A stretch of DNA of 64,000 nucleotides, taken from NCBI GenBank assembly GCA_963721805.1, contig CAVRJY010000002.1:5067-69066 (forward strand), in the 5' to 3' direction. Below are positions 6,724 to 61,696 of this stretch, in pieces; positions within the stretch are counted from its first letter, which is position 1, and every line of letters begins with the position of its first letter. Both the position numbers and the translations under genes were made by a program. Origin of the DNA: Nitrospirota bacterium. Lineage in GTDB: Bacteria > Nitrospirota > Thermodesulfovibrionia > Thermodesulfovibrionales > JdFR-86. The notes beneath the pieces are model-generated. The model had not been told where the DNA came from, did not search any database, and saw nothing but the letters and a program-made list of their open reading frames with translations.

Positions 6724-6725
6724 TT

Positions 6726-8547: not shown

Positions 8548-8563
8548 ATAACGATAATAGAGT

Positions 8564-15943: not shown

Positions 15944-16053
15944 CTGATCTTCTCCATTAATGCTGTTGGAAATCCACTCAACTATCACATGGCACGGAGA
16001 TAGGGCGGATGGCGAAGGAGGGAGCCCACCACCATCCACCCCCAGGAAGAAGA

Positions 16054-18479: not shown

Positions 18480-19817
18480 ATGCGAGCAGTGAGATTAGAG
18501 AATTCATTAGTAGTGCCAGTATCTGAAGCCTTGACAGTATCCCAACCAGAGAGGGACAATACAAATATATCGGTCTGGGGGTTTTCATTGATAAACATAA
18601 GAGCAAAGGGCAAGTGTCCTATCTGTAATAAGGCGTTCAAGGCGGACAAGAAATTTGGCTTTTTCTGTCCAGAGCATATGACTACGCCACAACGCTTCCA
18701 GATTGATTTCAGATATAAGAGTGAAAGGATACGAAGAGAAACCACGTTCGATGGGCGTCCCTTAAAATCTTTTGCTGAAGCATATGCATTGCTAAAGCAA
18801 GCTGAGAATGAAATCGCAGCACATAGGTTTGATCCTTCAAGGTGGTCCAGTAAGGAACGTTTTGAGTTTCGATTTGACAACCTTATTATGCGCTGGTATC
18901 AGGAGAAGGAAATCCTTATGAAGCAAGGGAAACTTGCTCCATCATATGTCCCAAAATTGATGACTTACATAAAACATTATTTCATGCCCGAGTTTGCATT
19001 GAAAGATGCTCGTGAAATAACCTCGGTAGATATCAAGGGATTTTACCTTACCCTTCCTGCAAAGGGATTGAAGGGGATACTTTCATTGAAATACCAAAAG
19101 AATGTTATGAATGCCCTTGAGGGTTTCTTTAACTGGCTACATGATCTTGATGTTATTGTTCAAATGCCTAAGTTCCAAAGGATTGAAGTGCCAGAACACG
19201 AGCCTATATTGATATCATCTCAGGAGCAAGCAATGATCATGGCCTATATACCTGCGGAGCATAAACCGATCTTTGCATTCCTATTTAATCAGGGGTGCAG
19301 ACCATCTGAAGTTAGAGCATTAAAGTGGATTGACATTGATCTCGTTAATGATCTGGTTACAATCAGAAGAACGTTCTCAGCTCATACATTGGTAAACCAC
19401 ACAAAAACCAAGAAGATTCGCCCAAATTATCTGTTCCCTGAAACGAAGGCACATCTCCCTGTACTTCCCGGACCAATTGAGTGGTGCAAAGACAGGTTTG
19501 TTTTTACGCACGGTAAAACCATGATAAGACCATATTCTGATAATCTAATCCATAAGATATATAACACAGCACTAGACGCACTTGAGCAAGCAACTGGAAT
19601 CAAAATAGACTCGCCACTTTATGAGGCAACGAAGTATAGTTTTGGGACGAACATGGTTAACGATTTTGATGTCCCAACTGATGTGGTTCAGGTGCATTAT
19701 GGACATACGTCTAAGGCTATGACACAGCGGTATGCGAAGCTAAATGCAGCTGCTGCACTGAAGAAGGCGGTCACCAAACGGTCACCAACCCCTCTGGACA
19801 CCGCTGCAAACGACTGA
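18480..19817 (+). CDS. Tyrosine recombinase / phage-type integrase with N-terminal Cys-rich segment
   Basis: C-terminal catalytic region ..GCRPSEVRALKW.. and VVQVHYGHTSKAMTQRYAKL (H-x-x-R..Y). CPICNKAF..FFCPEH lies near the N-terminus. The exact start is uncertain. Confidence 0.85.
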   Translation: MRAVRLENSLVVPVSEALTVSQPERDNTNISVWGFSLINIRAKGKCPICNKAFKADKKFGFFCPEHMTTPQRFQIDFRYKSERIRRETTFDGRPLKSFAEAYALLKQAENEIAAHRFDPSRWSSKERFEFRFDNLIMRWYQEKEILMKQGKLAPSYVPKLMTYIKHYFMPEFALKDAREITSVDIKGFYLTLPAKGLKGILSLKYQKNVMNALEGFFNWLHDLDVIVQMPKFQRIEVPEHEPILISSQEQAMIMAYIPAEHKPIFAFLFNQGCRPSEVRALKWIDIDLVNDLVTIRRTFSAHTLVNHTKTKKIRPNYLFPETKAHLPVLPGPIEWCKDRFVFTHGKTMIRPYSDNLIHKIYNTALDALEQATGIKIDSPLYEATKYSFGTNMVNDFDVPTDVVQVHYGHTSKAMTQRYAKLNAAAALKKAVTKRSPTPLDTAAND

Positions 19818-19832
19818 TAAATAAGGATTATT

Positions 19833-19868
19833 CAGTCGGCTCCGTGGGTTCGAATCCCACCTCCTCCG
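19833..19868 (+). other. tRNA 3'-end fragment (T-arm GTGGG-TTCGAAT-CCCAC + acceptor CTCCTCC + G); putative att core
   Basis: The T-loop and stem are seen directly. No complementary 5' acceptor (GGAGGAG), D arm or anticodon arm exists upstream, so this is not a complete tRNA. The tRNA identity is not determinable. Confidence 0.6.
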
Positions 19869-20106
19869 TATCACTTTATTGTTATTATTCGATAGGTTAA
19901 CCCTAAAAACACCCCCAAAATGTCGATCCGGTTTCGATCCGGTATGTTGGTTATATATGCTTAATAATTAGCCCTGTAAAGGTGATGAGAGCAAATCGGT
20001 TAAAGGGCTACAAGGGGTACCTTGACGCATACGGTTACTATGAAGATACACACCTCTAATGCCGAGCCCGAGCCTTCCACATGGAGCCCTAAACACTATC
20101 CCCGTA

Positions 20107-20173
20107 TTTTACGAAGATTTTACACCATTGCTTCCTGTTTTGACACCTATTTTACGTTATTTCGTGATAGGAT
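20107..20173 (+). promoter_or_regulatory. kdp-like promoter module A (tandem TTTTAC-type repeats + TG-n-TAGGAT) upstream of the porin
   Basis: TTTTAC at 20107 and 20118 (11-bp spacing), TTTTGAC at 20138, TTTTAC at 20150, then TTTCGTGATAGGAT. The module is collinear with module B at 21569-21623. Confidence 0.45.
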
Positions 20174-20196
20174 TTTAACAGGAGGCGAGAACTGAA

Positions 20197-20310
20197 ATGG
20201 ACATCGTCTTATTTGTCGCAACGCTGGGGTGTTTAGCACTCGTTTCGCATGGCCGAAGGGTCATGGCTCTAAGAGAGACAAAACAATCAATCAGGAGGAC
20301 ACGTAGATGA
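20197..20310 (+). CDS. Leader/small hydrophobic peptide (37 aa), paralog of the peptide upstream of kdpF
   Basis: MDIVLFVATLGCLALVSHGRRVMALRETKQSIRRTRR. The first ~16 codons are homologous to 21647-21727. Its TGA overlaps the porin ATG (AGATGA). A GGAGG lies 12 nt upstream in both copies. Confidence 0.35.
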   Translation: MDIVLFVATLGCLALVSHGRRVMALRETKQSIRRTRR

Positions 20311-21095
20311 CGAAGAGGTTGACGAGTTTGTTTTTAAGCATGCTGCTGGTTCTGGCTGCTGCTGGTGTTGCGTTGGCTGACGAGGCGGCCCCGGCAGCCG
20401 CCCCGGCGATACCCACATCCGCAACGGCATCGGTAAGCTACATGAGCGAGTACGTATGGAGGGGTCTCGTCCAGACCAACGCTGCGGGGGTCATCCAGCC
20501 CTCGATAGACTTCAACTACGGCGGGTTCAACGCCAACCTCTGGTCGAGCTACAACCTCGGCCACAGTGTCCAGCAGATGACCGAGACGGACCTCACGCTG
20601 AAGTACACGTACTCGATCAAGGACCTCAGCCTGAGCGCGGGCTATATCTACTATGGCACGCAACCCCTCAACGACGAGGAGGCGTTCGTCTCGGCCTCTT
20701 ACGCGACGATCCTGAACCCTAGCATCACCTACTATCAGGATCTCCGCCTCGGCCACGGCGGCGGCTTCGCGGTGCTCGCCCTGAACCAGACGAGCCCGGA
20801 ACTCTGGCACGGGATCACTGTGGGCGGCGGGCTCTCGGCCGGGTATGACTACAATGATTTCGCGATGGGACTTACGAAGGACGGCAAGAAGTATGCTGGC
20901 TTCTACAACGGTGAGCTCACGACCTTCATAAACTTTCCTGTGACGAAGGCCATCTCGATAAAGCCCTCACTGACGTACGATTTCCCTCTTACCAAGGATG
21001 CCAGCTATATAATGAAGACCGACTCGCAGGCGACTGCCCACAACGACCACAACTCGGTCCTATGGGGCGGCGTGACCGTTGCGGTGGCGTTCTAA
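20307..21095 (+). CDS. TorF-family (Gcw_chp) outer-membrane beta-barrel porin
   Basis: Signal peptide ..LVLAAAGVALA. SYMSEYVWRGLVQT..IQPSIDFNYGGFNANLWSSY is typical of the family. The C-terminal residue is aromatic (..VAVAF). A paralog lies at 39425-40207. Confidence 0.7.
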   Translation: MTKRLTSLFLSMLLVLAAAGVALADEAAPAAAPAIPTSATASVSYMSEYVWRGLVQTNAAGVIQPSIDFNYGGFNANLWSSYNLGHSVQQMTETDLTLKYTYSIKDLSLSAGYIYYGTQPLNDEEAFVSASYATILNPSITYYQDLRLGHGGGFAVLALNQTSPELWHGITVGGGLSAGYDYNDFAMGLTKDGKKYAGFYNGELTTFINFPVTKAISIKPSLTYDFPLTKDASYIMKTDSQATAHNDHNSVLWGGVTVAVAF

Positions 21096-21429: not shown

Positions 21430-21457
21430 AAAGGGCGAATAAAGGCTTCTTCCCCTC

Positions 21458-21497
21458 CCCCCCCGGCAACGATCCCCGACGTTTCGTTGCCGGGGGG
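21458..21497 (+). terminator. GC-rich hairpin CCCCCGGCAACG..CGTTGCCGGGGG
   Basis: Inverted repeat seen directly. A homologous hairpin follows the second porin at 40229-40264. The T-run is weak. Confidence 0.45.
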
Positions 21498-21568: not shown

Positions 21569-21623
21569 TTTACACCTTGGAGGCTCATTTATGCAGTACT
21601 TTTACACTGTTTCGTGATAGGCT
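21569..21623 (+). promoter_or_regulatory. kdp promoter module B (putative KdpE half-site repeats + extended -10-like TG-n-TAGGCT)
   Basis: TTTACACC (21569), TTTATGC (21588), TTTTACA (21600), TTTCGTGATAGGCT. The order and spacing match module A. Confidence 0.5.
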
Positions 21624-21646
21624 TGAATATGGAGGTGGACAACGAC

Positions 21647-21727
21647 ATGGACATCGTATTTGTAGGGGCAACACTGGGGTGCTTCGCACTCACGGGCTTG
21701 ATGGTCAGGCTCTTCGGAAAGCTGTAA
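21647..21727 (+). CDS. 26-aa hydrophobic peptide upstream of kdpF
   Basis: MDIVFVGATLGCFALTGLMVRLFGKL. A GGAGG lies 12 nt upstream. A paralogous copy lies at 20197. Confidence 0.4.
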   Translation: MDIVFVGATLGCFALTGLMVRLFGKL

Positions 21728-21741: not shown

Positions 21742-21834
21742 ATGGACATTCTGTATTGGATTGGCGGGGTGATTTCCACGGGGCTTCTGGTGTATCTGTT
21801 CGTGGCGCTTCTGAAGCCGGAGATATTCTCATGA
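21742..21834 (+). CDS. kdpF: KdpF, small subunit of the K+-transporting ATPase
   Basis: MDILYWIGGVISTGLLVYLFVALLKPEIFS has a typical KdpF length and the ..YL..ALL.PE.F ending. A GAGGAGG RBS precedes it. Confidence 0.8.
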   Translation: MDILYWIGGVISTGLLVYLFVALLKPEIFS

Positions 21835-21893
21835 CAACGAACCTGATGTTCTATCTGCTTATAGCGTTGCTAAAGCCGGGGATATTCTCATGA
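21831..21893 (+). CDS. Truncated KdpF-like mini-ORF (20 aa) between kdpF and kdpA
   Basis: In [20 protein letters not shown], the start mimics kdpA (MTTNMM) and the tail mimics kdpF (LLVYLFVALLKPEIFS). ATGA start/stop overlaps occur on both sides. Confidence 0.4.
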   Translation: MTTNLMFYLLIALLKPGIFS

Positions 21894-23701
21894 CAACAAA
21901 CATGATGATACAGATGGCAATTTACGTGGCCGTGCTCGTGGCGTTCGTCAAGCCGCTCGGGGCCTATATGGCCAAGGTATACATGGGTGAACCCTTCGCG
22001 CTGGGTCGGGTGCTTGGTCCGGTGGAGCGGCTTATATACAAAGTATGTCTCGTTAAATCCGATGAGGAGATGACGTGGCAGCGCTATGCCGCATCGCTTC
22101 TGTGGTTCAGCCTGTTTGGGGTGCTCGCGGTCTATCTCATCCAGCGCATGCAGTCCTTCCTGCCGCTTAACCCGGCGGCAATGGCGGCTGTATCGCCTGA
22201 CTCATCGTTTAACACCGCGATCAGCTTCGTGACCAACACGAACTGGCAGGGCTATGGCGGAGAGAGCACAATGAGCTATCTCACACAGATGGCGGCGCTA
22301 GGCGTCCAGAACTTCCTCTCGGCCGCATCGGCTATGGCCGTGATGGTGGCGCTCATCCGTGGTATCACGCGCCACACCTCGAAGACTATAGGAAACTTCT
22401 GGGTAGACCTTACGCGCTCGACTGTCTACATACTGCTTCCGCTCTCGATAATCTTCGCGCTGGTGCTGGTATCACAGGGCGTCGTCCAGAATTTCAGCGA
22501 TTATAAGAAGGTCCAGATGGTCGAGACCGTGACGTACGATAACCCCAAGAATGACGATCAGGGCAATCCTATAAAGGATGCCTCCGGTAACCCGGTGACA
22601 GAGAAAGCGACCCTCAAGGAGCAGACTATCCCGATGGGGCCTGCCGCATCCCAGATAGCCATAAAACAGTTGGGAACGAACGGTGGCGGTTATTTCAATG
22701 TGAACTCCGCGCACCCGTTTGAGAACCCGACCGCTTTATCCAATTTCCTTGAGATGCTCGCGATACTGCTTATAGGCGCGGCCCTGTGTTATACGTTTGG
22801 CCGCATGGTGAATGACAAACGGCAGGGTTGGGCGCTATTGGCCGCGATGCTCATTATATTCATCCCGCTCCTGCTGTTTACGGGCTATATCGAGCAGCAG
22901 GGCAACCCGCAGTTCTCCTCTATCGCAAGCATCGACCAGTCGGCCAATGCCATGCAGTCCGGCGGCAACATGGAGGGCAAGGAGGTGCGCTTCGGCATAG
23001 CCTCCTCGGCCACATGGGCCGTCGCGACCACGTCCGCGTCCAACGGCTCGGTAAACTCAATGCATGACTCCTATACGCCGCTTGGCGGGCTGGTGCCGAT
23101 GTTCCTAATGCAGCTTGGCGAGGTCGTATTCGGCGGCCTGGGCTGCGGTCTGTATGGGATGCTGATGTTCGTCCTGTTGACCGTATTTATCGCGGGCCTG
23201 ATGGTCGGGCGAACACCCGAATATCTCGGCAAGAAGATCGAGTCCTTTGAGATGAAGATGGCCTCGCTGACTATACTGATACCTGCCGCGCTGACACTGG
23301 TGGGAACGGCGATAGCCTCTATAGCCGAGGCTGGTGTGGCCGGGGTCGCCAATCCGGGGCCGCACGGTTTTTCAGAGATACTATATGCATTCAGCTCGGC
23401 CACTGGCAATAACGGGAGCGCATTTGCGGGCCTCAGCGCGAATACGGTGTTCTATAACTCGATCCTCGGGTTCGTGATGTTCATGTCCAGGTTCGGGGTC
23501 ATTATCCCGGTGCTAGGGATAGCAGGCTCGCTGGCCGCCAAGAAGTACGTCCCGGCAAGCTCCGGCACGCTGCCCACCCACACGCCGCTGTTCGTGACGT
23601 TCCTGGTGGCCGTGATAATAATTATCGGTGCCCTGACGTTCCTGCCTTCACTGGCGCTGGGGCCGATAGCCGAGCAGATGCTCGCAGGGATAGGGAGGTA
23701 A
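21890..23701 (+). CDS. kdpA: K+-transporting ATPase subunit A
   Basis: 603 aa polytopic protein. NWQGYGGE and [18 protein letters not shown] are selectivity-filter-like KdpA motifs. It sits in operon position. Confidence 0.95.
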
Positions 23702-29457: not shown

Positions 29458-30726
29458 TCAAACGCTCCACTTACAAATTTTATCCTCTACTATTTTCTTC
29501 TTGGTCGCATATCGTTCTCTAGATACGCGCACAATCTTTTCAGCGTTCATTTCGGTGCCTGATAGGTCTTCAGGCGGCAAGGTGCAGGCAGAAAACGCAT
29601 CCCTTGCAACACCATCAATCATGAGGCGCAGGTAAATATGATATTGGGGTAGGTTGCAGAAATGATCGGCCTCGAATGTGTGTCCTAACTCTTCCTCCAA
29701 GATGGCAGCGTCTCTTGCTCCGACACGGAATGATATGATCGTCCCGCAATTTCCGAATATTGCGTTTCGTACCTTCTCGTCGATCTGTTCGATGTACTGA
29801 TTTGCTAGAATCAAATTCAGACGGTACTTTCTTGCCTCAGATAGGATGTTAGCAAATGACTCTGTCGCAAAGTTTTGGAATTCATCGACGTACAGATAGA
29901 AATCTCTTCTGTCCTTTTCAGTCGTATCCACCCTGGTCATTGCTGCAAGCTGTATCTTTGTAACCAGAAGCGCTCCGAGAAGTGCTGAATTATCCTCTCC
30001 GATTCTCCCCTTGCTTAAATTCACAATCAAGATTTTCTGGTTATCCATTACCTCGCGGACATCAAAAGAAGACTTGCTTTGACCGAGGATATTTCTCATG
30101 ATTGAACTTGAAAGGAATTGCCCGACCTTGTTTTGGATCGGTGCGATTGCCTCGCCTCTTAGCTTCTCTGGGTAGCCCGCGAACTCCTTTGTCCAGAAAT
30201 TGCGCACTACGGGGTCATCGATGTCCTTAGTCTGCTGCTTTCGGTATCCTTCATCGGCAAGAATTCTCAGAACCCCCAGAAGGGTTGAGTTGGGTATTCC
30301 AATAGGGTCAGAATCGCGTTTCTGAGTATGTGTTCAAGCCGTGGTCCCCAGCTATCGACCCAAATCTTCTTAAACACGCCGACTAAGCCCGAAGCGGTAA
30401 GATGCCGGGTAGCGGGGTTCTTGTCTATCATTACATTGAAGGCTATCGGGTATTCCTGATCTACTGGGTTGAAGTAGATGACATCGTTGATTCGATTTGA
30501 GGGAATGGCTTTCAGTAGCCGCTCGGCGGAATCACCGTGCGGGTCTATGAAGGCCACCCCGTTACCATTTCTGATATCTTGTATGGCAAGATGCTCCAGA
30601 AGGTTTGTTTTGCCCATTCCTGTTTTCCCGATAATGTACATGTGGCGTCTGCGATCATCTCTTTTGATACCAAATATTTCTCTCGTTTCGGAAATTTGTT
30701 TTTGCGAAAAATGTGATTTCTGACAT
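29458..30726 (-). pseudogene. Type IV coupling-protein-like / TraD-VirD4-type ATPase with about 2 frameshifts (~30290, ~30675)
   Basis: My cross-frame translation gives MSEITFFAKTNFRNE / EIFGIKRDDRRRHMYIIGKTGMGKTNLLEHL..FIDPHGD / LRILADEGYRK..FYLYVDEFQNFATESFANILSEARKYRLNLILANQY. Confidence 0.65.
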
Positions 30727-30780
30727 ATGTGTTTTTCTTACGGTTTAAAAAGCCCTTTGTTAGGGCCTTCATTGGCCTTG

Positions 30781-30815
30781 AAAAAAGCCCCCTCCTTCTT
30801 TGAAGACGAGGGGGC
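30781..30815 (-). terminator. Rho-independent terminator after the primase-like gene
   Basis: On the minus strand, GCCCCCTC-(13 nt)-GAGGGGGC is followed by TTTTTT. Confidence 0.6.
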
Positions 30816-30915
30816 AAGGGTAAAGAGCTATTTGTTTTGTGTGAAAGACTCGCTTCTCTCAGTATCCTGAAGTACATCTGAAGATTCTTCAGGGCCTGGA
30901 AAGGCGATTTCTTCC

Positions 30916-31628
30916 TCATGATCTCTTAAGGCGGATTGAGATCATCAGGAACTTGTTCATGAGCTTGAAGTGCTCCTGTGACAGATAGGGCAGTCCGAAA
31001 TTACAGACTGCCTGGTGCCCGGAGTCCCATAGCTTGAGGCAGTCGAACATGTCGGTCGTAAAGTAGACCTCCTTGTCGGGCTCAATGCGGTCGTAATACA
31101 GGAGATAGAGTTCGGGGTTAAAGGAATGGTGGAAAACGTGTTTTCCGTCCTTTATCCTTATCCCGTAGTATGCTATCTTCTTTTCGTTCGTCCGTGACGG
31201 TAAAGGAGATGGTGCCGGACAGCATGGTTTTCCCCTTGGGCTTTCCCAACGCCGAACATCTGCAGGTTTCCTGGGATATGCCCATGTTGCTTAAGGTTCT
31301 TGTCGAACTCCAGCTCGTAGGTCAGCGTGAGCTGCTTGGTTATCTTTCCACCGGTGAAGCATGCCTTTTCTTCGAGCAGTTTCTTGGCCGTGTCCCAGTC
31401 ACATTGCGAAATCGCCATGACCAGTGAGATGATGTGGCCGCTTCCTTTGCACTCAGGGCAGTACCAGAGGTTCTTTTTCTCTCCGTAGGCCTTTATGACG
31501 GCCTGTTTCCCGCACTTGTGGCATGGATACCTAATATAGGCTCCATGCTGGCTACCGTCAATCTGAAGAAGCTTGAGGGCCTTGCTCGTATCAACGGCGC
31601 AAAGCGTGTTAGCGTAATTCATGCACAA
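30916..31628 (-). pseudogene. CHC2 zinc-finger / Toprim-like primase-family protein with about 2 frameshifts at homopolymer runs (~31233, ~31180)
   Basis: YPCHKCGKQ..WYCPECKGSGHIISLV is a zinc finger. The tail reads, in other frames, KGKTMLSGTISFTVTDERKE and KIAYYGIRIKDGKHVFHHSFNPELYLLYYDRIEPDKEVYFTTDMFDCLKLW. Confidence 0.5.
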
Positions 31629-31763
31629 CCTCCTTATATGGGTGACTTTTAGGGGTGGATTTGTAGCAAAAAGACATGTTATTATCCAGTAGACAGCTTG
31701 TATCCAACAGACAAACGCTTTTAAATCAAGGAGTTAAGGATAGAGAGAGTTAGGCCGTTTTAT

Positions 31764-39246: not shown

Positions 39247-39424
39247 GTCCGCAATCCAGCCGATTGAAACATCATTGTCGCAAGTCCCCATTTTTGTATC
39301 ATCACGCAAATTATTATTCCCTGCTAATTCAAGAGGTTGCCTGCTGGCATGGAACTTGTATTTCCGTCCTCGACTGGCTGGACGGCCATGAGGGCGGCTA
39401 AATAATTTACTGGAGGACACGGTG

Positions 39425-40207
39425 ATGAAGAGAAGGTTTACGAGTTTGGTATTGGGGTTGCTGCTGGTTCTGGGGGCAACCGGCGTGGCTTTGGCTGATG
39501 AGGCCCCGGCCGCGGCCCCTTCCATACCCACATCCGCTACGGCGTCGGTAAGCTACCTAAGCCAGTATGTCTGGCGCGGCCTCGTCCTGAGCGACGGGTG
39601 GGTGATACAGCCCTCGATAGACTTCAACTACGGCGGGTTTAATGCCAATCTGTGGATGAACTACGACAGGAACCCGGACATCCAGCAGACGAACGAGACT
39701 GACCTGACTCTTAAATACACATACTCGGTCAAGGACCTGAGCCTGAGCGCGGGCTATATCTACTATGGCGTCGTGGGCGCAAACACCGAAGAGGCGTTCG
39801 CCACACTCTCGTACGCGACGATCTTAAACCCGTCGATCACCTACTACCAGGACCTCCGTCTCGGCGATGGCGGCGGCTTCGCGGTGCTCGCGGTGAGCCA
39901 GACGAGCCCTGAGCTCTGGCACGGGATCACGGCCGGAGGCGGCGCATCTGTGGGGTATGACTGCAACGATGCGGTGATGGGATTTAAGAAGGACGGCAAG
40001 AAGTACAGCGGATTCTACAACGGCGAGCTCTCGACCTTCGTCAACATACCCGTGACGAAGGCTATCTCGATCAGGCCGTCGCTGGCGTACGACTTCCCGC
40101 TTACGAAGGACGCGGCATACATAATGAAGTCCTCGTCCATGGCCTTCGCGGGTAACGCTCATAACTCCGTGCTCTGGGGCGGAGTGACGGTAGCGCTGGC
40201 ATTCTAA
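39425..40207 (+). CDS. TorF-family outer-membrane porin, paralog of 20307-21095
   Basis: Collinear with the first porin over its whole length (SYLSQYVWRGLVLS..IQPSIDFNYGGFNANLWMNY...GGVTVALAF). A GGAGG lies 8 nt before the ATG. Confidence 0.7.
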   Translation: MKRRFTSLVLGLLLVLGATGVALADEAPAAAPSIPTSATASVSYLSQYVWRGLVLSDGWVIQPSIDFNYGGFNANLWMNYDRNPDIQQTNETDLTLKYTYSVKDLSLSAGYIYYGVVGANTEEAFATLSYATILNPSITYYQDLRLGDGGGFAVLAVSQTSPELWHGITAGGGASVGYDCNDAVMGFKKDGKKYSGFYNGELSTFVNIPVTKAISIRPSLAYDFPLTKDAAYIMKSSSMAFAGNAHNSVLWGGVTVALAF

Positions 40208-40228
40208 GGAAGGCATCCCTCCCCCCCT

Positions 40229-40264
40229 CCGGCAACGGTCCCCGGCGTGCCGTTGCCGGGGGGA
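40229..40264 (+). terminator. Hairpin CCGGCAACGG..CCGTTGCCGG(GGGG), homologous to 21458-21497
   Basis: Inverted repeat seen directly, preceded by the same C-rich tract. Confidence 0.45.
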
Positions 40265-41295: not shown

Positions 41296-41652
<357 letters not shown>

Positions 41653-43068: not shown

Positions 43069-43107
43069 GGGGGTGGAGCGACGTGCTCCATCCCCGCTTA
43101 CTTTTTT
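43069..43107 (+). terminator. amtB terminator hairpin + T-run
   Basis: GGGGGTGGAGC-gacg-TGCTCCATCCCC, then ..CTTTTTT. The T-run merges into the first bases of the cassette arm. Confidence 0.55.
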
Positions 43108-43285
43108 CAAAGCGCGCCAAATCGCTTGATACGTCGTTGGGCTTCAAAGACTCGCCCTCTATGTACGCCCAAGTACACCATCGGGCGGTCTTCTCGCCCT
43201 GCCTTGTCTGAAGACGATTTGGGCGCGCTTTCGGGGGTTAATAGCTGCTACGCAGATGGACCCCCGCGCCCCCGTGGTCAACGGC
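43106..43285 (+). repeat. E1 left arm (hairpin 1 ~43109-43240, hairpin 2 ~43241-43270, terminal GGTCAACGGC 43276-43285)
   Basis: AAAGCGCGCCAAATCG pairs with CGATTTGGGCGCGCTTT. The apex is TGTAC-gcccaa-GTACA. Then comes CGGGGG-(23 nt)-CCCCCG. Confidence 0.7.
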
Positions 43286-43325
43286 ATGATTAGAGATATT
43301 GCATTTGCTTATGATAGGTGTGCTA

Positions 43326-44348
43326 TCAATTAGTTAGTTTTGAGCTAATCCCACTTAAATACTCAAGCGCGCTGTCTTCATCGTATATTACCTTTGTCCC
43401 ATATATTTCATGAAGGGCTAATGGTTTATCGCATATCCAATGTGCAAGGCTTGTTTCAGTTAGAAAGGCATCACAATAGGGTAAAGCCCATTGAGCATGA
43501 GAAATATCTGTCAGGTCGTTTGGCTTAAATCGCTGGCTTTTGTTATATCTAAATAACGCATGGATACTTGCGCCAATATGAATCCAAGGCAATTCCTTGT
43601 TAATCTTCTTTTGATCGAAGGCAGCGTAAATGAATAGTCGCGTTTGTTTAACTAACTCAGTTCGAACTGTTTCATCCCATGAAGGTGCATGGCCTGTATT
43701 CTTAGCATCAAGAAATTCCCAGACCCCATCGATGTCGTCTTTGAGAACATCCAAGCTTCCTGTAATCTCTAGCATGAATACTTCGTGAAATGTTTTCCAA
43801 TCTTGGTTTTCATCCTTTCCGTGATTCAGTCTTGCTATTAAATCTTCTGAATTTTTAGTGTGAAATTCTCCAGAAATATCCTCAGTTTTTCTCCATACAT
43901 ACTTTGCCGGGGTATATGGTTGATTGCCTTTAACTTTACTCTCACTATTACGAATAAACAAGATGAGTTCTTGTCCAGCAATACTCAGCGGTGATAAGAA
44001 AGTTATCTGTTGGCTTAGTTCGTCCATCACTTTTGCGATCTGAAGCTTTCCTTGCTCATTACCGTAATTAATTAAATCTTTATGCACATGGGGGCTAAGA
44101 GGACAAATTGCAATATTTGAGCGGACGAGCATTTTCAATATATTGAAGATGTCTACTTGCCTAGGAGATGCCTTGCCAATTGAAGCATTGCTCATATTAA
44201 TCCAATAGTTGGTATCAAGGTAAATCCTATGCTTCTTGAGCATTTCTTCTCCAAGTTCGATTTTTGATTGCTCATAAAGTTCTTCATTATGCATAGAAAC
44301 TATTTTAAACCTTTGTGCAGAATTATTCTCTTGAAACCATGCGGACAC
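43326..44348 (-). CDS. E1 cargo: hypothetical protein (322-340 aa), AT-rich
   Basis: Long ORF. The start is ambiguous (GTG at 44348 or ATG at 44294). YLDTNYWI near the N-terminus and PYCDAFLTETS near the C-terminus are loosely PIN-like. No firm family assignment. Confidence 0.55.
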   Translation of the reverse strand: MSAWFQENNSAQRFKIVSMHNEELYEQSKIELGEEMLKKHRIYLDTNYWINMSNASIGKASPRQVDIFNILKMLVRSNIAICPLSPHVHKDLINYGNEQGKLQIAKVMDELSQQITFLSPLSIAGQELILFIRNSESKVKGNQPYTPAKYVWRKTEDISGEFHTKNSEDLIARLNHGKDENQDWKTFHEVFMLEITGSLDVLKDDIDGVWEFLDAKNTGHAPSWDETVRTELVKQTRLFIYAAFDQKKINKELPWIHIGASIHALFRYNKSQRFKPNDLTDISHAQWALPYCDAFLTETSLAHWICDKPLALHEIYGTKVIYDEDSALEYLSGISSKLTN

Positions 44349-44440
44349 TCATGAGCAATAAAGCAATTCCATCTTGTGTCCGAAGCTGGCACACAATCAC
44401 AAGATACGCCCCCATACCACAACACCCCGGAACTGGTCAA

Positions 44441-44470
44441 TGGGAACTGGTTCCTAGGAACCAGTTCCCA
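44441..44470. promoter_or_regulatory. 30-bp perfect palindrome TGGGAACTGGTTCCTAGGAACCAGTTCCCA with flanking half-sites, upstream of the E1 cargo gene
   Basis: I verified that the reverse complement is identical. Extra half-sites GGAACTGGT (44429-44437) and GGAAGCGGTTCCC (44471-44483) flank it. It lies ~95-120 nt upstream of the cargo start on the minus strand. Confidence 0.55.
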
Positions 44471-44570
44471 GGAAGCGGTTCCCATGGACGCGTTCCGCCT
44501 TTTCGTTCTATCATCGCGCATGAAGTATATAGCAGATATATTAACGGGACGGAAAACCGGGCGGCCACAT

Positions 44571-44711
44571 GAAAAACGTTTCTGAACGCATGAACACAGG
44601 GGTAGCTAAAAAGCGATGAAATCCGCGAGGTTGAGATGCGTTTTGTTTTTTCATTTGAACGCCCTAAAAAAATACGCGCGGCCGCGCGCGATAACTATGT
44701 ATATAACTAAG
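44571..44711. other. Conserved internal module of the cassettes (E1 copy)
   Basis: Shares these blocks with 61359-61498: GAAAACGTTTCTGAACGCATGAACA, CGATGAAATCCGC, TTCATTTGAACGC, an A-run plus GC palindrome, and TATGTATATAACTAAG. Confidence 0.6.
44666..44690 (-). terminator. Minus-strand intrinsic terminator inside the E1 module
   Basis: The minus strand reads CGCGCGCGGCCGCGCG followed by TATTTTTTT. Confidence 0.55.
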
Positions 44712-44885
44712 CCGTTGACCTTGTGGGGCGCGGGGGGCGTCCTTCATCCGTGCCCCCCGAAAGCGCGCCCAAATCGTCTTCAGACAAGGCAGGGCGAGAA
44801 GACCGCCCGATGGTGTACTGTGACGTACATGGAGGGCGAGTCTTTGATGCCCAACGACGTATCAAGCGATTTGGCGCGCTTTGAA
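44711..44885 (-). repeat. E1 right arm (inverted copy of left arm)
   Basis: The reverse complement aligns with 43106-43285. The stems are conserved, but the apex loop (gtcaca versus gcccaa) and the hairpin-2 loop differ. Confidence 0.7.
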
Positions 44886-44898
44886 GAAGGATAGTTTG

Positions 44899-46395: not shown

Positions 46396-46734
<339 letters not shown>

Positions 46735-46747
46735 TTATCCGGTCCTC

Positions 46748-48389
46748 CTATCTGTGTGTGTGGCGCGTCTGGAAGTCAGGGTATGCGGTGACGCCCACCT
46801 CGGCCTGGTCCAGACCTTCGATTTCGACCTCTTCAGGGACCCTGAGCTTGATGAACTTGTCGAGGACCTTGAAGAAGACGTATGAGATCGCAAATACGTA
46901 TACGAAGTTCGTCAGCGTGCCTATGCACTGGGCCGCGAACTGCGAGGCGTCACCATAGAACAGGCCCTTGACCGTGCCGGCCACGCCGTTGAAGCCGTCG
47001 CCGTAGGTGCCGTCCGCGAAGAGGCCCAGGGAGAGCACGCCCCATGCGCCGTTTACGCCGTGCACTGAAAACGCGCCTACCGGATCGTCGACTTTGAGCG
47101 TGCGCTCGACGAAGAACACCGAGATGATGACGAGTATGCCCGCTATCGCGCCGATCAGCACCGCCGAGGGCGCGGTGACGAAAGCGCACGGAGCGGTGAT
47201 CGCGACGAGCCCGGCCAGCATGCCGTTGCACATCATGCTGATGTCAGGCTTGCCGTAGCGAGCCCACATGAAGATCATCGAGGAGAACGCGCCGGCGGCC
47301 GAGGCGAGCATCGTGTTGGTCGCGATGACGCCGATGCGGAGGTCGCCGCCCGCGAGCGTCGAGCCCGCATTGAAACCGAACCAGCCGAAGGCCAGTATGA
47401 ACGTGCCGACGACGGCCATCGGGATGTGGTGGCCGGGGATCGCGAAGATCTTGCCGTCCTTATACTTGCCGATCCTGGGGCCGAGCACTATCGCGCCGGC
47501 GAGGGCCGCGACGCCGCCGGTCATGTGCACGACGGACGATCCGGCGAAGTCCACGTGGCCGTGGCCGAGGCCGAAGTTCGTGCCGAGCTGCGGAGAGGAA
47601 CCCGCCGCCCCATACCCAGTTGGCGAAGAGCGGGTAGATAACCGCTCCGACGAATATGCCGTATATGATGAAGCTCTTGAAGCTCCAGCGCTCGGCCATC
47701 GAGCCGGTCGGGATCGTCGCTGTCGTGTCCATGAAGACCATCTGGAACAGGAAGAGCGCGAAGACCGAGGCGTCATACGTCACGCCCGAGAGGAAAAATC
47801 CCCTCATCCCGAACAGGCCCATGTCGTGGCCGAACAGGTGAAGCGTGAACTCGTGGTTGAGTACGCCTGCGCCACCGAGCGAGGCCACGCCGCCCACGCC
47901 TCCCATCTGGAGCGCGAAGCCGCATATCCAGTAGCCGAGCATGCCCAAGCCGTACACCATGAAGTTCATGGCCATCGTGTGGCCCGCGTTCTTGGCCTGC
48001 GTGAAACCGGCCTCGACCATCGCGAAGCCTGCCTGCATGAACATGACCAGGAACCCGGCGACCAGCGTCCAGACCATGTTGATAGCTATCCTGTTGTGGC
48101 CGATGACGTCCGCGAGCTTCGTGGCCAGGGGCTCGGCCTTCGAGAGCGCCGCCATGTCCTCCTTGCTCGGGGCGCCGGAGGTCGCGCCTATCACGTCCGC
48201 GGCGCCGCCTGTGTTCGCGCCCGAGGGATCAGGCTTCGGCTCTTCAGCGGCAGCCGCAGGAGCCGCCGGAGCGGTCGTGGCCGTGGCGTTGACTGCCGCA
48301 GGCGCAACTGCGGCTTCGTCGGCATACGCCAGATATGCCGAGCCCGCTATCATTACAATCATCATCAGTGCCATCAACAACCGCTTCAT
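46748..48389 (-). pseudogene. Second ammonium transporter, split by one frameshift near 47600
   Basis: The N-terminal piece (47460..48389) ends ..PLFANWVWGGGFLS. The continuation QLGTNFGLGHGHVDFAGSSVVHMTGG.. is in the frame of 46748..47776. Confidence 0.75.
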
Positions 48390-51696: not shown

Positions 51697-51722
51697 AAAA
51701 CAGGGCGGCCCGTGAGGGCCGC
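51697..51722. repeat. Hairpin AAAACA-GGGCGGCCC-gtga-GGGCCGC (copy 1 of a duplicated terminator-like element)
   Basis: Similar to 52841-52876. It overlaps the stop codon of the 51722..52756 gene. Confidence 0.5.
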
Positions 51723-52756
51723 TATTGATGCTGAGCGCGCGAGATCATCTGCTTGATGGCCTTCTTTGCGTTAATTTCAAGTATTTCAATCTCAGGGTGC
51801 ATATTAGCGAAAACCCTGAAGACCTCGTCAGCAAAGGGCTGCCCGATAGTGTCTATACCCTCGAAATTCAATACGACCACCTTGAAACGTTCGAATCGCG
51901 CCAAAAGTCGTTTGGCCTGTGAGCGCGATATCAATTGCTCATCTCCGTATCTGGCAAGGCGCACAGGTACGACAGTCTTTGAGAAGGTGAACTCCTCGTC
52001 GCTCGTAAACTTATTGAAAACGCCCTGTGTGGTACGGGTCGTGCCGTTATTGAGCTCCATATAAACCCCTGTGCCCATTACATCATCATCGTGGTTCAGT
52101 GCCCAGTATTTGTCGCTGGCTGCTCGGTGAGAAAATGACATGTCGTGTGAGTAAATAACAAAATAGTCAAACATATTGGAGGTAAAAAAAATTCCTTCAC
52201 CGGAGTGTCTAGTCGGGTCGGTCGTAAGTTTTCCTTTAGAGAGTTCCAGAATCGCATGGTGTTCGTCTTCAAGGTTTAGTTTGCGGACGAGTTTCCTGAA
52301 TATGCCTTCTCCGTCATCCATGATATTAACCTTGGTGCTTGCAGTCGTCATCTTGATAGTTACTATGATAACTTTGCCGCCGGAATGATCGATAGCGTTA
52401 TTGAGCATCTCAGTGAACCCATACTGGAGAATATCCATGACGTTATTGGGAAGCCCCTGCTCATGAAGTTTTGGTGCTATATCATTTCTCCATACCACGT
52501 CCTCCTGAAGCTTTCCGTCTAGCTTGTAGGATGTTTTTAACTCAAAGATCGGTGCAGGCTTATATATGCGACTGCGTCTCTCGCCTTCGGCGATAAGCTT
52601 TTTATCGGCCACAAGCGATTGCAGGTGCTTGCCAACGGCCTGACGTGAGATGCCGAAATGCTCCGCTGAATATGAGGCGATGTCATTTTTGTGGGCGCTT
52701 ACGTGAGACAGGATAAACCGCCTGACATCCTCACTCTTTGTGCGCTTGACCGCCAT
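51722..52756 (-). CDS. wHTH + GHKL (HATPase_c-like) ATPase + C-terminal STAS-like (DUF4325-type) domain protein; low GC
   Basis: The N-terminal HTH is ISRQAVGKHLQSLV. EMLNNAIDHSGG and DDGEGIF are ATPase N- and G1-box-like motifs. The C-terminus VVVLNFEGIDTIGQPFADEVFRVF resembles DUF4325. Confidence 0.55.
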   Translation of the reverse strand: MAVKRTKSEDVRRFILSHVSAHKNDIASYSAEHFGISRQAVGKHLQSLVADKKLIAEGERRSRIYKPAPIFELKTSYKLDGKLQEDVVWRNDIAPKLHEQGLPNNVMDILQYGFTEMLNNAIDHSGGKVIIVTIKMTTASTKVNIMDDGEGIFRKLVRKLNLEDEHHAILELSKGKLTTDPTRHSGEGIFFTSNMFDYFVIYSHDMSFSHRAASDKYWALNHDDDVMGTGVYMELNNGTTRTTQGVFNKFTSDEEFTFSKTVVPVRLARYGDEQLISRSQAKRLLARFERFKVVVLNFEGIDTIGQPFADEVFRVFANMHPEIEILEINAKKAIKQMISRAQHQ

Positions 52757-58751: not shown

Positions 58752-60226
58752 TGCCTAAGAAAGCCGTCATCGTCGGCGCGGGCCCGGCCGGGCTCACCGC
58801 CGCGTATGAACTGCTCACCAGGACCGATATCGTCCCGACGGTGCTTGAGGCCTCCGAAGACATCGGCGGCATCTCGAAGACCGTCCATTACAAGGGCAAC
58901 CGCATCGACATCGGAGGGCACCGCTTCTTCTCGAAGTCCGAGCGAGTCATGCGCTGGTGGGCCGACGTATTCCCGATAGAGGCCGCGCCGGAGCCGGACC
59001 CCAAGCACACCGACAAGGTCATGCTGCGGCGAGACCGCCTCTCGCGGATATTCTTCCTCGGGAAGTTCTTCCCGTACCCGATCCGGCTGACTCTGGACGT
59101 GATGCGCAAGCTGGGCGCGCTTCGTGCATTTAAGATATGCCTGAGCTACCTCATGGTCCGCCTCAGGCCGATCAGGCCCGAGCGGTCGCTCGAGGACTTC
59201 TTCATCAACCGCTTCGGACGCGAGCTGTACCTCACGTTTTTTAAGGGCTACACCGAGAAGGTCTGGGGCGCGCCGTGCGCCGAGATCTCGCCCGAGTGGG
59301 GCGCTCAGAGGATCAAGGGCCTCTCGGTAGGGCGGGCGGTCAGCCACGCGATAAGGCAGTCGCTTGGGGGTGGGCAGCCGGCCGTTGAGACGAGCCTGAT
59401 CGAGAATTTTTTGTACCCCAAGCTCGGGCCGGGCCAGCTCTGGGAGGAGGTCGCGGCGCGGGTGCAGCAGCGCGGGGGCAAGGTGATAACGGGCGCGGAG
59501 GTGGTGGGCGTCGAGACCTCGGGCAGGCGCGTGACTGCTGTCACGGCCAAAGACCGGCAGACGGGCGGGCTTCAGCGCCATGAGGCGGACTGGTTCTTCT
59601 CGACCATGCCGGTGCGCGAACTTGTCGCGGCGATGGGCGAGGCGGTGCCGCAAGATGTGAGGGACGCGGCTGCGGGCCTGCAATACCGCGATTTCATGAC
59701 CGTGGGGCTGCTGCTTAAAAAGCTCAAGACTCCGGTGCCGGACAACTGGATATACGTCCAGGAGCGCGGGGTCAGGATCGGGAGGCTACAGGTCTTCAAT
59801 AACTGGAGCCCGTGGCTCGTAGCCGACCCGGAAGGCACGGTATGGCTGGGGCTTGAGTACTTCTGCACCGAGGGGGACGGGATGTGGTCGATGCCTGACG
59901 ACGAGTTCGCGCGGTTCGCGATAGGCGAGCTTGCCTCGATCGGGCTGATCGATCCAGCCGACGTCCTCGACCATAAGGTGCTTCGCGTGCCCAAGGCATA
60001 TCCGGCATACATCGGCGGGTACGATAGATTCGGCGTGGTCAGGCGATACCTCGACGGACTCGAAAACCTCTTCCTGATCGGCCGAAACGGGATGCACCGG
60101 TATAACAATATGGACCACTCGATGCTGACCGCGATGGCCGCGGTCGAAAACATCATCGCTGGGCGCACTGACAAGACCAATATATGGGCGATCAACGCTG
60201 AGGACGACTATCACGAGGGTTCATGA
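58751..60226 (+). CDS. NAD(P)/FAD-dependent oxidoreductase (amine-oxidase / UDP-galactopyranose-mutase-like fold)
   Basis: [16 protein letters not shown] dinucleotide-binding motif; 491 aa. Its stop TGA (60224-60226) lies in the first bases of cassette E2. Confidence 0.75.
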
Positions 60227-60395
60227 AAGCGCTCCAAATCGCTTGATACTGCGTCACGCCTCGCAGCCCGATCCTCAACGTATGTCCATATACGCCTCCG
60301 GTCGGTCTGCTCGCCGCTCCTTGTCTGAAGACGATTTGGGCGCGCTTTCGGGGGAGAGAATAACGTAGCCCCCCGCGCCCCACGAGGTCAACGGC
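60224..60395 (+). repeat. E2 left arm
   Basis: Shares AAAGCGC(T)CCAAATCGCTTGATAC and CCTTGTCTGAAGACGATTTGGGCGCGCTTTCGGGGG..CCCCCGCGCCCC..GGTCAACGGC with the E1 arms. The apex is CGTAT-gtccat-ATACG. Confidence 0.65.
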
Positions 60396-60458
60396 TTATA
60401 TTAAGAGCATCATGACCGTTGCCCCTGCCGCACATGGAATGGAAGGGAATTCAGTCGA

Positions 60459-61019
60459 TTAATCCTCAGCTCTCCATGCGATAAGGTCTAAGTGTATTCG
60501 ATGATTAAAACTGTATTCATTTTTTGCCATATCTGTTGCAACTGACTGATAATTATCGTTTGTTACCTTATTTATTGCAGTTATCGTAGTCCATTTAGTG
60601 TTCTTATTATGGGAATCTAATTTTTTACCAACATAGCTATCTAAAGGGACTTCAAGGAACGGCATTAAATGGCTCAACTGATATTTTTCATATATGAATC
60701 GATTATAACAAGCGTTGCGCATAAATATATTTAAACATTTTCGCGCTATACCCCAAAGCGCAGTCTTTTCCTTAGAGTGATCTATGATTAAATATAATTT
60801 GTCAACCAAATTCTTTGTATGCTCGTCTATTATGTTTGAGTAATCCGCTTCATTCATAATCAACCTGAATTGATTGAAATCCATTCCGCCCAGATATTCT
60901 CTAACGCATTTACCAGTCCCCGTTGGATATCCCCTTACTGTACTAACCCCTATGGAAACGTTTGCGAGATGTTTCGTTAATGCCTTATAAAAATCAAATA
61001 CATTGGCCTTATCATTCAT
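60459..61019 (-). CDS. E2 cargo: hypothetical protein (186 aa), AT-rich
   Basis: A GGAGG RBS lies 8 nt before the ATG. I recognise no motif. Confidence 0.55.
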   Translation of the reverse strand: MNDKANVFDFYKALTKHLANVSIGVSTVRGYPTGTGKCVREYLGGMDFNQFRLIMNEADYSNIIDEHTKNLVDKLYLIIDHSKEKTALWGIARKCLNIFMRNACYNRFIYEKYQLSHLMPFLEVPLDSYVGKKLDSHNKNTKWTTITAINKVTNDNYQSVATDMAKNEYSFNHRIHLDLIAWRAED

Positions 61020-61358
61020 GTTTCATAGCCTCCACTCTGTGATTTAATATGAAACAATAAAACTGAGAGAGTTAAATGGCACCAGCCAGTTCTCATCCCG
61101 ATGTGCATCATGCTCCAAAGATACCACAACCGCTCGGAGTATACCAAACATTTTTCCGAGGGCTGCCGACGTTCATTAACCATAGTTAATCGAAAGTTAG
61201 TAGAAAACGCACGGGCATCAATTTTTCCTATCAACTTAGGTTTATATATAAACCGTAGGATATCGCTTTTTTCATTTCTTTGTGATTTAATACGGGATGA
61301 TGCTTAGATGGGTATTTTTGAGGTCGCGGAAAGCGAAGTTGGACGCCGATGGAGCGGT

Positions 61359-61498
61359 GGAAAACGTTTCTGAACGCATGAACATGGGAGTGGTCAAATT
61401 ATCGATGAAATCCGCTGGCTTGGACTGTTTTTTCTCTGTTCATTTGAACGCTCAAAAAAAATGCGCGTACGCGCGCGGTAAGTATGTATATAACTAAG
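61359..61498. other. Conserved internal module of the cassettes (E2 copy)
   Basis: Aligns block-wise with 44571-44711. It includes a minus-strand terminator (GC palindrome 61463-61477 plus T-run, 61454-61477). Confidence 0.6.
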
Positions 61499-61521
61499 GT
61501 GACGAGCGCAGGTCTAATTAA

Positions 61522-61696
61522 GCCGTTGACCACGAGGCGCGGAGGCAGCGGCTGGGCCGCGCACTTCGCAAAGCGCGATAAATCGCGTCAGGCTAGGAAC
61601 GGCGAGGAAAACGTCCGCAAGTGTACTGAGACGTACTCTGGAGGACGGATTTCCGAAGCCGTGACAACGTATCACGCGACTTTAGCGCGCTTTCAA
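61522..61696 (-). repeat. E2 right arm
   Basis: Read inward, it has AAAGCGCGCTAAAGTCGCG..CGCGATTTATCGCGCTTT, apex GTAC-gtctca-GTAC, GCGCGG..CCGCGC and GGTCAACGGC. Confidence 0.6.

Follow-up and report, generated by a model that had tools for sequence, protein, structure and literature searches.

Inverted, Covarying Hairpin Arms as the Structured Ends of a Family of Cargo Cassettes in an Uncultured Nitrospirota Lineage

A stretch of 64,000 nucleotides from a Nitrospirota bacterium (GenBank assembly GCA_963721805.1, contig CAVRJY010000002.1; the whole stretch is referred to below as the window) was followed up at positions 43109-43285, where an initial annotation had described two hairpins with stems conserved through compensatory changes. 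This region is the left arm (the left terminal inverted repeat, TIR) of a non-autonomous cargo cassette, E1. E1 belongs to a previously undescribed cassette family with at least five sequenced members, E1 and E2 in the window and E3, E4, and E5 in relatives, and the arms are the structured ends of this family. Pairing in the arm hairpin is conserved more than its sequence, through compensatory changes, and in related strains different cargo is found between the same arms at orthologous sites. Our preferred reading, to which we give slightly less than even confidence, is that the arms are structured ends of mobile cassettes that would be recognized in folded form by an enzyme encoded elsewhere and processed by single-strand chemistry.

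Layout of Cassette E1

E1 lies between the terminator of amt and the stop codon of a CitMHS transporter gene and stands out in the composition profile with a GC content of approximately 0.40-0.50 compared to a background of 0.63. It consists of the following features:

43109-44882, no strand assigned: cassette E1, whole, 1774 bp (inverted repeat, composition profile, sequence)
43109-43231, plus strand: long imperfect hairpin of the left arm, 123 nt (folds, covariation, covariance model R1 at 147.9 bits)
43232-43266, plus strand: second, GC-rich hairpin of the left arm, CGGGGG...CCCCCG, with a nested small stem-loop (fold, -12.9 kcal/mol)
43276-43285, plus strand: GGTCAACGGC, inner boundary motif of the left arm (exact in all four window arms)
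43326-44294, minus strand: cargo gene, 322 amino acids (aa) from ATG or 340 aa from an upstream GTG (open reading frame list)
44429-44496, no strand assigned: GGAAC-NN-GTTCC palindromes, 4-5 sites with an exact 15-bp spacing (read from the sequence)
44570-44710, minus strand: right-end module (direct repeats, terminator scan, five-element alignment)
44711-44882, minus strand: right arm, with GCCGTTGACC (44711-44720), the second hairpin, and the long hairpin (44760-44882; 149.2 bits)

Repeat finding returned the two arms as inverted repeats (43103-43237 and 44754-44888) that are 96% complementary, together with a direct match of 78% identity between 43109-43237 and 60226-60354, the latter within E2. 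The sequences quoted in the initial annotation were all present at the places it gave. The long hairpin of the E1 left arm is built on a basal stem that contains an asymmetric loop or bulge, followed by TGATAC/GTCTGA with an invariant G.G and an invariant T.C mismatch and, further inward, by a GGC/GCC helix and then AAGAC-T-CGCCC/GGGCG-GTCTT. Its apex is TGTAC-GCCCAA-GTACA, and the apex loop of the right arm is GTCACA. The energy listed for the second hairpin is that of the fold of the left-arm remainder beyond the long hairpin. The right-end module holds the 24-mer AAAACGTTTCTGAACGCATGAACA and GAAC motifs in repeated copies. Its minus-strand terminator, with a stem at 44690-44675 and then a T run, lies just inside the right arm.

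Folding and Covariation of the Long Hairpin

The same 123-nt hairpin was adopted by all ten arms of the five cassettes, and folding of both strands, a check that had been proposed together with the hairpins, recovered it equally well on either one. The lowest-energy folds included the four elements drawn in the initial annotation: a basal stem with one G bulged out, a middle stem, an apical stem closed by a 6-nt loop, and the second hairpin. Folded as single-stranded DNA (ssDNA), the E1 left arm has a minimum free energy of -45.5 kcal/mol compared to -28.6 +/- 3.2 kcal/mol for shuffled sequences (z = -5.25), and the E2 right arm -40.7 kcal/mol compared to -30.1 +/- 2.9 kcal/mol (z = -3.69), with none of 200 shuffled sequences as good in either case.

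The long hairpins were aligned with MAFFT, without fitting to the structure. Standard pairs filled 94.6% of the pair cells in this ten-arm alignment, compared to 31-45% when the partners were slid by one to three columns, and eight pairs had changed on both sides compared to 3.3 +/- 1.2 in shuffled alignments (0 of 500 shuffles as high). With one diverged copy added, the both-side-changed pairs numbered 18 compared to 5.5 +/- 1.6, 95.3% of cells paired, and all five measures lay above every one of 500 shuffles, although this 11-copy alignment leans toward the structure because it was fitted to the model. Stem covariation through compensatory changes, the central claim made for this region, thus stands above both shuffled and slid controls in 10-11 copies drawn from three related assemblies. 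The column-wise counts score the middle stem of the E2 left arm as broken; this stem is rebuilt in a shifted register, which keeps the pairing.

Two further statements about the arms held in part. Loops had been said to drift while stems covary, and this is true of the apex loop, where one of six columns is invariant, but not of the internal unpaired columns, of which 44% are invariant (58% for the paired columns). The best-conserved blocks of the arm are its outer ~25 nt and their inverted inner copy. The second hairpin had been described as recurring in the arms and was present in eight of the ten, but the E4 right arm and the E5 left arm have a weakly folding, AT-richer segment instead.

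Conserved Imperfections and Polarity

The imperfections of the hairpin are conserved as well as its pairing. An asymmetric 1x2 internal loop approximately 8 bp from the foot was found in ten of ten arms (as a one-base bulge in E1), the foot itself reads AAAGCGC/GCGCTTT in all ten, and in all ten the block 5'-(C/T)(T/G)TGATAC lies opposite GTCTGA(A/C)G with G.G and T.C mismatches that never change. The pair that adjoins these invariant mismatches (columns 20-108) covaries from TA to GC. In every arm the asymmetries point the same way relative to the inside of the element, and covariance-model scores of 106-149 bits in the forward orientation compare with 26-36 bits in reverse, giving a single polarity in ten of ten arms. 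These conserved imperfections point to selection on the folded form, consistent with the earlier suggestion of a selected folded nucleic acid, and with their fixed polarity they argue against both passive homogenization of a palindrome and flip/flop inversion.

Mechanical upkeep of the palindrome, by intrastrand templated repair or gene conversion between its halves and with no selected function, would erase such imperfections, yet all ten arms retain, with fixed polarity, both mismatches (G.G and T.C) along with the asymmetric 1x2 loop and the other internal loops, and the E2 left arm keeps its pairing by a register shift. Template switching can homogenize palindromes, and the sample is small and its sequences related; we nevertheless consider this explanation highly improbable.

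TGATAC is invariant, and the longer CTTGATA occurs in seven of ten arms, on one strand only, 17-23 nt inside the element boundary and exactly at both conserved mismatches. CTTGATA is the nick motif of Rep_1/pC194-type HUH initiators (PMC10378824). As a lead it carries low weight, being a 7-mer picked post hoc with approximately eight chance matches expected in 64 kb.

Covarying stems are also what arms acting as RNA would display, whether as transcription-terminating or insulating stem-loops, as stabilizers of cargo mRNA, or as a small structured RNA. Host genes read directly into the arms of E1, E2, and E4, and a canonical terminator lies just inward of every right arm. The long hairpin, however, is followed by only three T and is hence not an intrinsic terminator, Rfam 15 gave 0 matches over the whole window, G.U shows no excess over A.C, and both strands fold equally well. 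At every locus the limits of the folded unit are exactly those of the mobile element, and an RNA would leave unexplained why the symmetry is inverted at both ends; we regard a role as RNA as very unlikely. Of the two forms that had been offered, ssDNA or RNA, the latter gained no positive support, given the lack of an Rfam match and the exact agreement of the folded unit with the insertion boundaries at five different loci.

The Cassette Family and Its Cargo

The relatives' metagenome contigs were reached in two ways: L129 through a cluster mate of the neighboring amt protein, and L211 and L212 with six-frame translations of the arms used as protein queries, which led to open reading frames (ORFs) extended into arms by gene callers. 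Copies were located by nhmmer and the covariance model R1. E2 and the three cassettes of relatives have the following features:

60226-61693, no strand assigned: cassette E2, whole, 1468 bp
60226-60395, plus strand: E2 left arm, with the long hairpin at 60226-60348 and apex CGTAT-GTCCAT-ATACG (120.7 bits)
60459-61019, minus strand: E2 cargo gene, 186 aa
61358-61521, minus strand: E2 right-end module, with a minus-strand terminator (61476-61463) followed by a T run
61522-61693, minus strand: E2 right arm, with the long hairpin at 61570-61693 and apex GTAC-GTCTCA-GTAC (106.1 bits)
L129:11447-13083: cassette E3 (nhmmer/covariance model), cargo of 283 aa on the opposite strand
L212:264-2697: cassette E4 (nhmmer/covariance model), cargo of 446 aa
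L211:8072-10174: cassette E5 (nhmmer/covariance model), cargo of a zeta-toxin-like protein (Pfam E = 4.7e-8) and an upstream 104-aa ORF

The members share a layout of left arm, cargo, right module, and right arm, in which the inverted arms of ~170 nt each consist of a 123-nt imperfect palindrome and then a variable linker of ~50 nt. Both window inserts are low in GC (0.34-0.50 compared to 0.63 for the chromosome), and the E2 right arm is the most diverged arm of the window, with 65-71% identity to E1-type arms. The motif GGTCAACGGC has exactly four occurrences in the window, one per arm and always at the arm's inner end. Its reported invariance holds for these four and for eight of ten arms overall, but not for the left arms of E3 and E4, where the cargo directly abuts ...GTGGT or ...CAAGG.

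The cassettes hold one or two accessory genes, and no recombinase gene was found in or beside any of the five elements. The cargo proteins of E1 to E4 matched no Pfam or PADLOC family. The E1 cargo is matched by an identical protein, P0001, and by 47 homologues of 24-50% identity, which lie in unrelated contexts beside restriction-modification or toxin genes and without arms. For the E2 cargo, which is close to an orphan, 5.8 billion proteins yielded a single homologue, of 30% identity and again in an unrelated context without arms. The arms therefore do not travel with particular cargo.

An inward-directed terminator just inside the right arm was present in all five elements, as determined by terminator scan and alignment, and the right module also carries repeated GAAC motifs. 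The blastn module map placed the GGAAC-NN-GTTCC array in E1, E3 (L129 ~12624-12690), and E4 (L212 ~2099-2150), with no array in E2 or E5. Judged from its sequence, the array probably comprises binding sites of a regulator and looks like a multi-dimer operator or a centromere-like site. Two other candidates for the content of the right module were rejected: a conserved small protein, as the frames differ between E1 and E2 and have early stops, and a conserved RNA fold, as there was no covariation beyond the terminator.

A HMMER scan of 1.84 billion representative proteins returned 20 further representative ORFs that translate arms; these map to contigs of 1.55 Mb, 656 kb, and 97 kb of one assembly, another arm-translating ORF had been placed on its 353-kb contig by a preceding search, and others map to other ENA assemblies. 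The translated arm traces point to at least 11 additional arms elsewhere in the source assembly, with more again in related ones, and suggest roughly ten cassettes per genome in this uncultured lineage. The ORFs P0059, P0064, P0068, P0069, P0071, and P0073, of 160-177 aa, are open across the E5-type right module and right arm in several copies and have in common such motifs as ACSD(K/E/N), FIRTSEQ, and (P/Q)TSE(Q/R)(K/N)(R/T)QKRARTRAEC; they are probably gene-calling artifacts on conserved DNA.

Searches further afield were negative. The exact degenerate arm pattern (21 specified bases, fitting all arms) had no match in GTDB species genomes, JGI metagenomes, or IMG/VR, and the looser pattern CCNCNNGGTCAACGGCNT gave single chance matches only in viral contigs. 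A 20-mer of the right module gave one chance match, within a histidine-kinase gene, and none in viral contigs. With amt as bait, the GTDB species genomes contained no close relative (best 64-67% amino-acid identity), and blastn of plasmids and phages gave no match.

Across ~110 kb of lineage DNA (64 kb from the source and 47 kb from relatives) no intact solo arm of the cassette type was found; there was one truncated arm and one diverged nested hairpin. The latter (L212:2218-2339; 122 nt) is homologous to the arm hairpin, scoring 53 bits to R1 (E = 7e-9) with a fold z of -5.1, and is part of a ~200-bp insertion in the right module of E4 (L212:2197-2395) bounded by perfect 12-bp inverted repeats, CTCTAAAAATAG/CTATTTTTAGAG. 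This nested insertion indicates that the hairpin module exists also as a small free-standing unit that resembles MITEs (miniature inverted-repeat transposable elements). The truncated solo arm (L211:6042-6113), which comes after lptD, is internally deleted: its outer hairpin half runs through the apex loop and then directly into ...CCCGCACCCCGAGGTCAAAGGC, with neither cargo nor right arm. Similar outer half-arms stand beside full arms in the proteins P0055 and P0077, and all three truncated arms break at the apex loop.

Insertion Sites

The five elements, at four independent loci, all start with AAAGCGC and end with GCGCTTT, and no target-site duplication or flanking direct repeat was found at any of them. 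They occupy short intergenic gaps: E1 and E3 follow the T run of the amt terminator, whereas E2 and E5 have their right arms just upstream of host genes beside promoter-like sequence, that of E2 ending 47 bp upstream of the annotated start (61741) of a GDP-mannose dehydratase ORF. The oxidoreductase gene upstream of E2 takes the last base of its TGA stop codon (60224-60226) from the first A of the cassette, and the first AA of E4 completes a TAA (L212:263-265); without the E4 arm, a TGA would be restored at the same position. From the stop codons completed or restored in E2 and E4 it follows that these insertions lie exactly at gene ends and leave the proteins unchanged.

The absence of a duplication at four of four independent loci is the first difficulty for an ordinary double-stranded TIR element mobilized in trans by a DDE transposase that binds the terminal 20-25 bp. 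Such an element would be a mobile insertion cassette (MIC) or a MITE-flanked composite, and the palindrome would result only from the presence of the binding site twice, inverted, in each arm, with a MITE ancestor as one possible origin. The long TIRs, the passenger genes, the mosaic structure, and the lack of an internal transposase are indeed hallmarks of MICs and of Tn3-derived inverted-repeat miniature elements (TIMEs; PMC4337579, PMC4133298), the outer ~25 nt and their inverted inner copy are the best-conserved parts of the arm, and the small MITE-like insertion with 12-bp TIRs is found in the same lineage. Covariation, however, reaches the middle and apical stems, far from a terminal binding site, the invariant mismatches and fixed polarity would be unexplained, and no DDE gene was seen in the lineage DNA that was read. 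We consider this explanation unlikely.

Cargo Exchange at Fixed Sites

E1 and E3 occupy the same amt/CitMHS gap and carry unrelated cargo between ...GTGGT and CCATACCAC..., with left arms that are 90% identical and 482 bp of right module and arm in common. A second site, upstream of the SLT gene, is occupied by E5 in a relative and by a different, E1-type arm with an extra outer half-arm in the source genome. Right arms are 95-97% alike across elements, left and right arms within one element are 85-96% alike, and the modules form a mosaic in the blastn map. The varying position of the cargo boundaries makes homologous double crossover within the arms a simpler explanation for the exchange than a site-specific cassette recombinase.

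A recombinase of that kind, of the tyrosine/Xer-like type, would have its core at the apex GTAC-N6-GTAC and exchange cassettes between arms in the manner of pdif modules. The geometry of the apex is that of a recombinase core, with inverted half-sites of 4-5 bp around an asymmetric 6-bp spacer; the spacer differs between left and right arms and is common to the right arms of E1, E3, and E4. Different cargo at the same sites and inverted flanking arms with no duplication would also fit. The three truncated arms break at the spacer, but loop breaks are expected from general palindrome processing too, and the boundaries of the cargo are variable and never at the apex. Furthermore, covariation persists between the outer and inner halves of each hairpin, where crossover at the apex, if frequent, would wear it down, the arms do not resemble dif/Xer sites in sequence, and the sole tyrosine recombinase of the window (18480-19817) lies in a separate island 23 kb away. 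Exchange at an apex core is, in our judgment, quite unlikely.

Comparison With Known Systems

Hairpins formed by repetitive extragenic palindromes (REP) flank the genes of REP-associated tyrosine transposases (RAYTs, of the HUH Y1 type) in the REPIN system (PMC3337134). REPINs and the arms are both imperfect hairpins of ~90-120 nt with conserved ends and a variable but pairing interior, both are non-autonomous and make no target duplication, and the RAYT gene is typically flanked by REPINs, giving the same order of hairpin, gene, and hairpin. The arms differ in their extra linker of ~50 nt and in flanking varied cargo instead of a RAYT gene, and none was seen in the ~110 kb of source window and relatives. 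GTAG/CGTC REP tags at the hairpin foot were considered and rejected, as they are not consistently present.

MICs and TIME- or MITE-bounded elements are mosaic non-autonomous transposons (PMC4337579, PMC5444012, PMC4133298). They resemble the cassettes in being TIR-bounded and transposase-less, in carrying passenger genes that include toxin-antitoxin genes, in their mosaic structure, and in being mobilized in trans. Known MIC TIRs, however, are ~20-50 bp, match known insertion sequence (IS) or Tn3 elements, and make target duplications, whereas the cassette TIRs are ~170 bp, each arm is a long covarying palindrome, there is no duplication, and no known parent IS.

The initial annotation had compared the arms to integron attC sites, and the comparison is reasonable for the working mode. 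Both are imperfect hairpins of similar size with structure conserved over sequence and with conserved unpaired bases from which polarity could arise, and both belong to small, mostly one-gene cassettes of unknown function swapped at a fixed site. The arms nevertheless fail on the attC boxes, on the array, and on the integrase. The foot AAAGCGC/GCGCTTT, found in ten of ten arms, does not correspond to R'' (RYYYAAC) and R' (GTTRRRY), and an identity as integron attC sites was rejected. The nearest look-alikes of the boxes, GGTCAAC and GTTGACC, lie outside the hairpin with one mismatch each and in reverse order relative to the cargo, and two arms are without them. Each cassette has two inverted arms as opposed to one attC, the window holds single cassettes 15 kb apart with no direct array, and each cassette brings its own terminator and upstream module. 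No intI or attI was found, no integron integrase adjoins the arms, and the one tyrosine recombinase of the window is in a different low-GC island.

The ends of IS200/IS605 elements share with the arms subterminal imperfect hairpins that are read as ssDNA and the lack of a target duplication. They differ in inserting beside a fixed tetra- or pentanucleotide. A further difference is that the cassette boundary lies exactly at the hairpin foot.

The pdif modules of Acinetobacter plasmids have XerC/XerD sites of 28 bp. They resemble the cassettes in holding accessory or toxin-antitoxin genes between inverted sites, in occurring in varied contexts, and in making no duplication. The arms are six times longer, the arm alignment contains no dif-like half-site, and only the geometry of the apex is alike. 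Plasmids with repeated Xer recombination sites are mentioned in a preprint (bioRxiv 10.1101/2022.12.17.520857).

The inverted terminal repeats of parvoviruses, which serve rolling-hairpin replication (PMC5714925), come close in form, as each end is an imperfect palindrome of ~120 nt adjoining unique sequence, with one end an inverted copy of the other. Rolling-hairpin flip/flop was rejected, since ten of ten arms have one polarity with no orientation variants; no Rep gene is present in the cassettes.

Proposed Mechanism

Under our preferred reading the hairpin would be a cis-acting site, the end of the element, recognized in folded form by an enzyme acting in trans, with the conserved mismatches giving the site its polarity. 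The folded form could be ssDNA or an extruded cruciform, which nothing in the data separates. The enzyme would most likely use HUH, REPIN-RAYT, or IS200-like single-strand chemistry and leave no duplication. Among known systems, the REPINs beside RAYT genes (PMC3337134) and the ends of IS200/IS605 elements come nearest. Cargo turnover at a fixed site would proceed by homologous double crossover in the 170-480 bp of arms and module after DNA uptake, and no dedicated cassette recombinase would be needed for the swaps. We infer folded recognition because the element ends at the hairpin foot with no duplication, because covariation extends over the whole stem, because the mismatches are invariant with fixed polarity, and because the hairpin exists as a free-standing copy. 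The chemistry, as no enzyme was found, is deduced from anatomy alone.

Several observations weigh against folded recognition with single-strand chemistry. No candidate enzyme was present in the 64 kb of source and 47 kb of relatives' DNA. There is no fixed target motif of 4-5 nt; the flanks are only pyrimidine-rich (TTTTC, TCTCT, TTTCT, TCATG), a bias that lies 5' of each element end, and the exact insertion boundaries are read from occupied sites only, with no empty site. The ends of IS200/IS605 elements are not inverted repeats of each other, whereas the arms are inverted over ~170 nt, a likeness that includes their non-palindromic parts, and the cassettes number ~10 copies per genome compared to hundreds for REPINs. 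Some of the covariation counts reflect the shared ancestry of the sampled arms. Finally, the cells without Watson-Crick pairs show no strand bias (G.T 4 compared to A.C 6), and for this reason the data cannot tell which strand folds, or DNA from RNA.

A bolder version of folded recognition is possible but doubtful: the cassettes would form a previously undescribed class of stand-alone gene cassettes with two inverted attC/REPIN-like folded sites, and a dedicated nuclease-ligase acting in trans would move them in the form of ssDNA or a cruciform. This enzyme may be an HUH protein that nicks the strand-specific TGATA exposed by the two conserved mismatches.

Other Features of the Window

A low-GC island at 1-20000 (GC 0.33-0.46) is unrelated to the cassettes and contains genes for DndB (2763-3347), an SMC-like ATPase (4707-6527), PRiA4_ORF3 (8911-9546), an AEP-TOTE primase with DUF927 (11908-14925), a GNAT acetyltransferase, and a tyrosine integrase (18480-19817). 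It has the appearance of an integrated element with defense or conflict-system genes. In a smaller patch of lower GC at 29458-31700 (0.45-0.51) lies a coupling-protein fragment of the TraG/TrwB type, 249 aa in length; the patch is probably the remnant of a conjugative element. The gene at 51722-52756 is also low in GC (0.44-0.50) and codes for a 344-aa protein; a relative has at the matching position, in conserved gene order and without arms, a 344-aa HATPase_c_2/DUF4325 gene, and the gene appears to be an older acquisition.

Several repeats were found besides the arms. Two paralogous genes of ~260 aa (20294-21095 and 39412-40207), 19.1 kb apart, have 75-89% DNA identity in blocks; the one that was scanned is Gcw_chp-like, and both are followed by similar C-rich terminator-like hairpins (21452-21497 and 40218-40263). 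A 92-nt repeat with a ribosome-binding site and start codon occurs at 20150-20241 and 21600-21691, 1450 bp apart, and a tandem 59-nt duplication of 80% identity (21788-21905) lies just upstream of kdpA (21890-23701); these repeats near kdpA may be duplicated small leader or KdpF-like ORFs. A 351-nt inverted repeat of 71% identity (41300-41650 and 46398-46748) reflects two convergent glnK-amt pairs, between which lie the CitMHS gene and the insertion site of E1.

Implications

To our knowledge, folded-DNA recombination sites come from few systems, namely integron attC, the ends of IS200/IS605 elements and REPINs, CTX phage attP, and parvoviral repeats. Each of these revealed new enzymology, and some yielded new tools. 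The family described here joins ends of this type with transposon-like inverted symmetry and exchangeable cargo of single genes, among them a zeta toxin and proteins without a recognized domain, and its members occupy the same chromosomal sites with different cargo across related strains. If the cassettes were ordinary elements mobilized by a DDE transposase, their arms would nonetheless offer an exceptionally clear example of a bacterial TIR evolving under structural constraint. If the arms are read as folded DNA, they would represent a new route for shuffling accessory genes in uncultured bacteria, and the 123-nt hairpin with its two invariant mismatches would be a compact substrate for finding the enzyme. 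Should a dedicated nuclease-ligase exist, the cassettes would amount to a dispersed, array-free counterpart of the integron that shuffles accessory and toxin genes at fixed intergenic sites.

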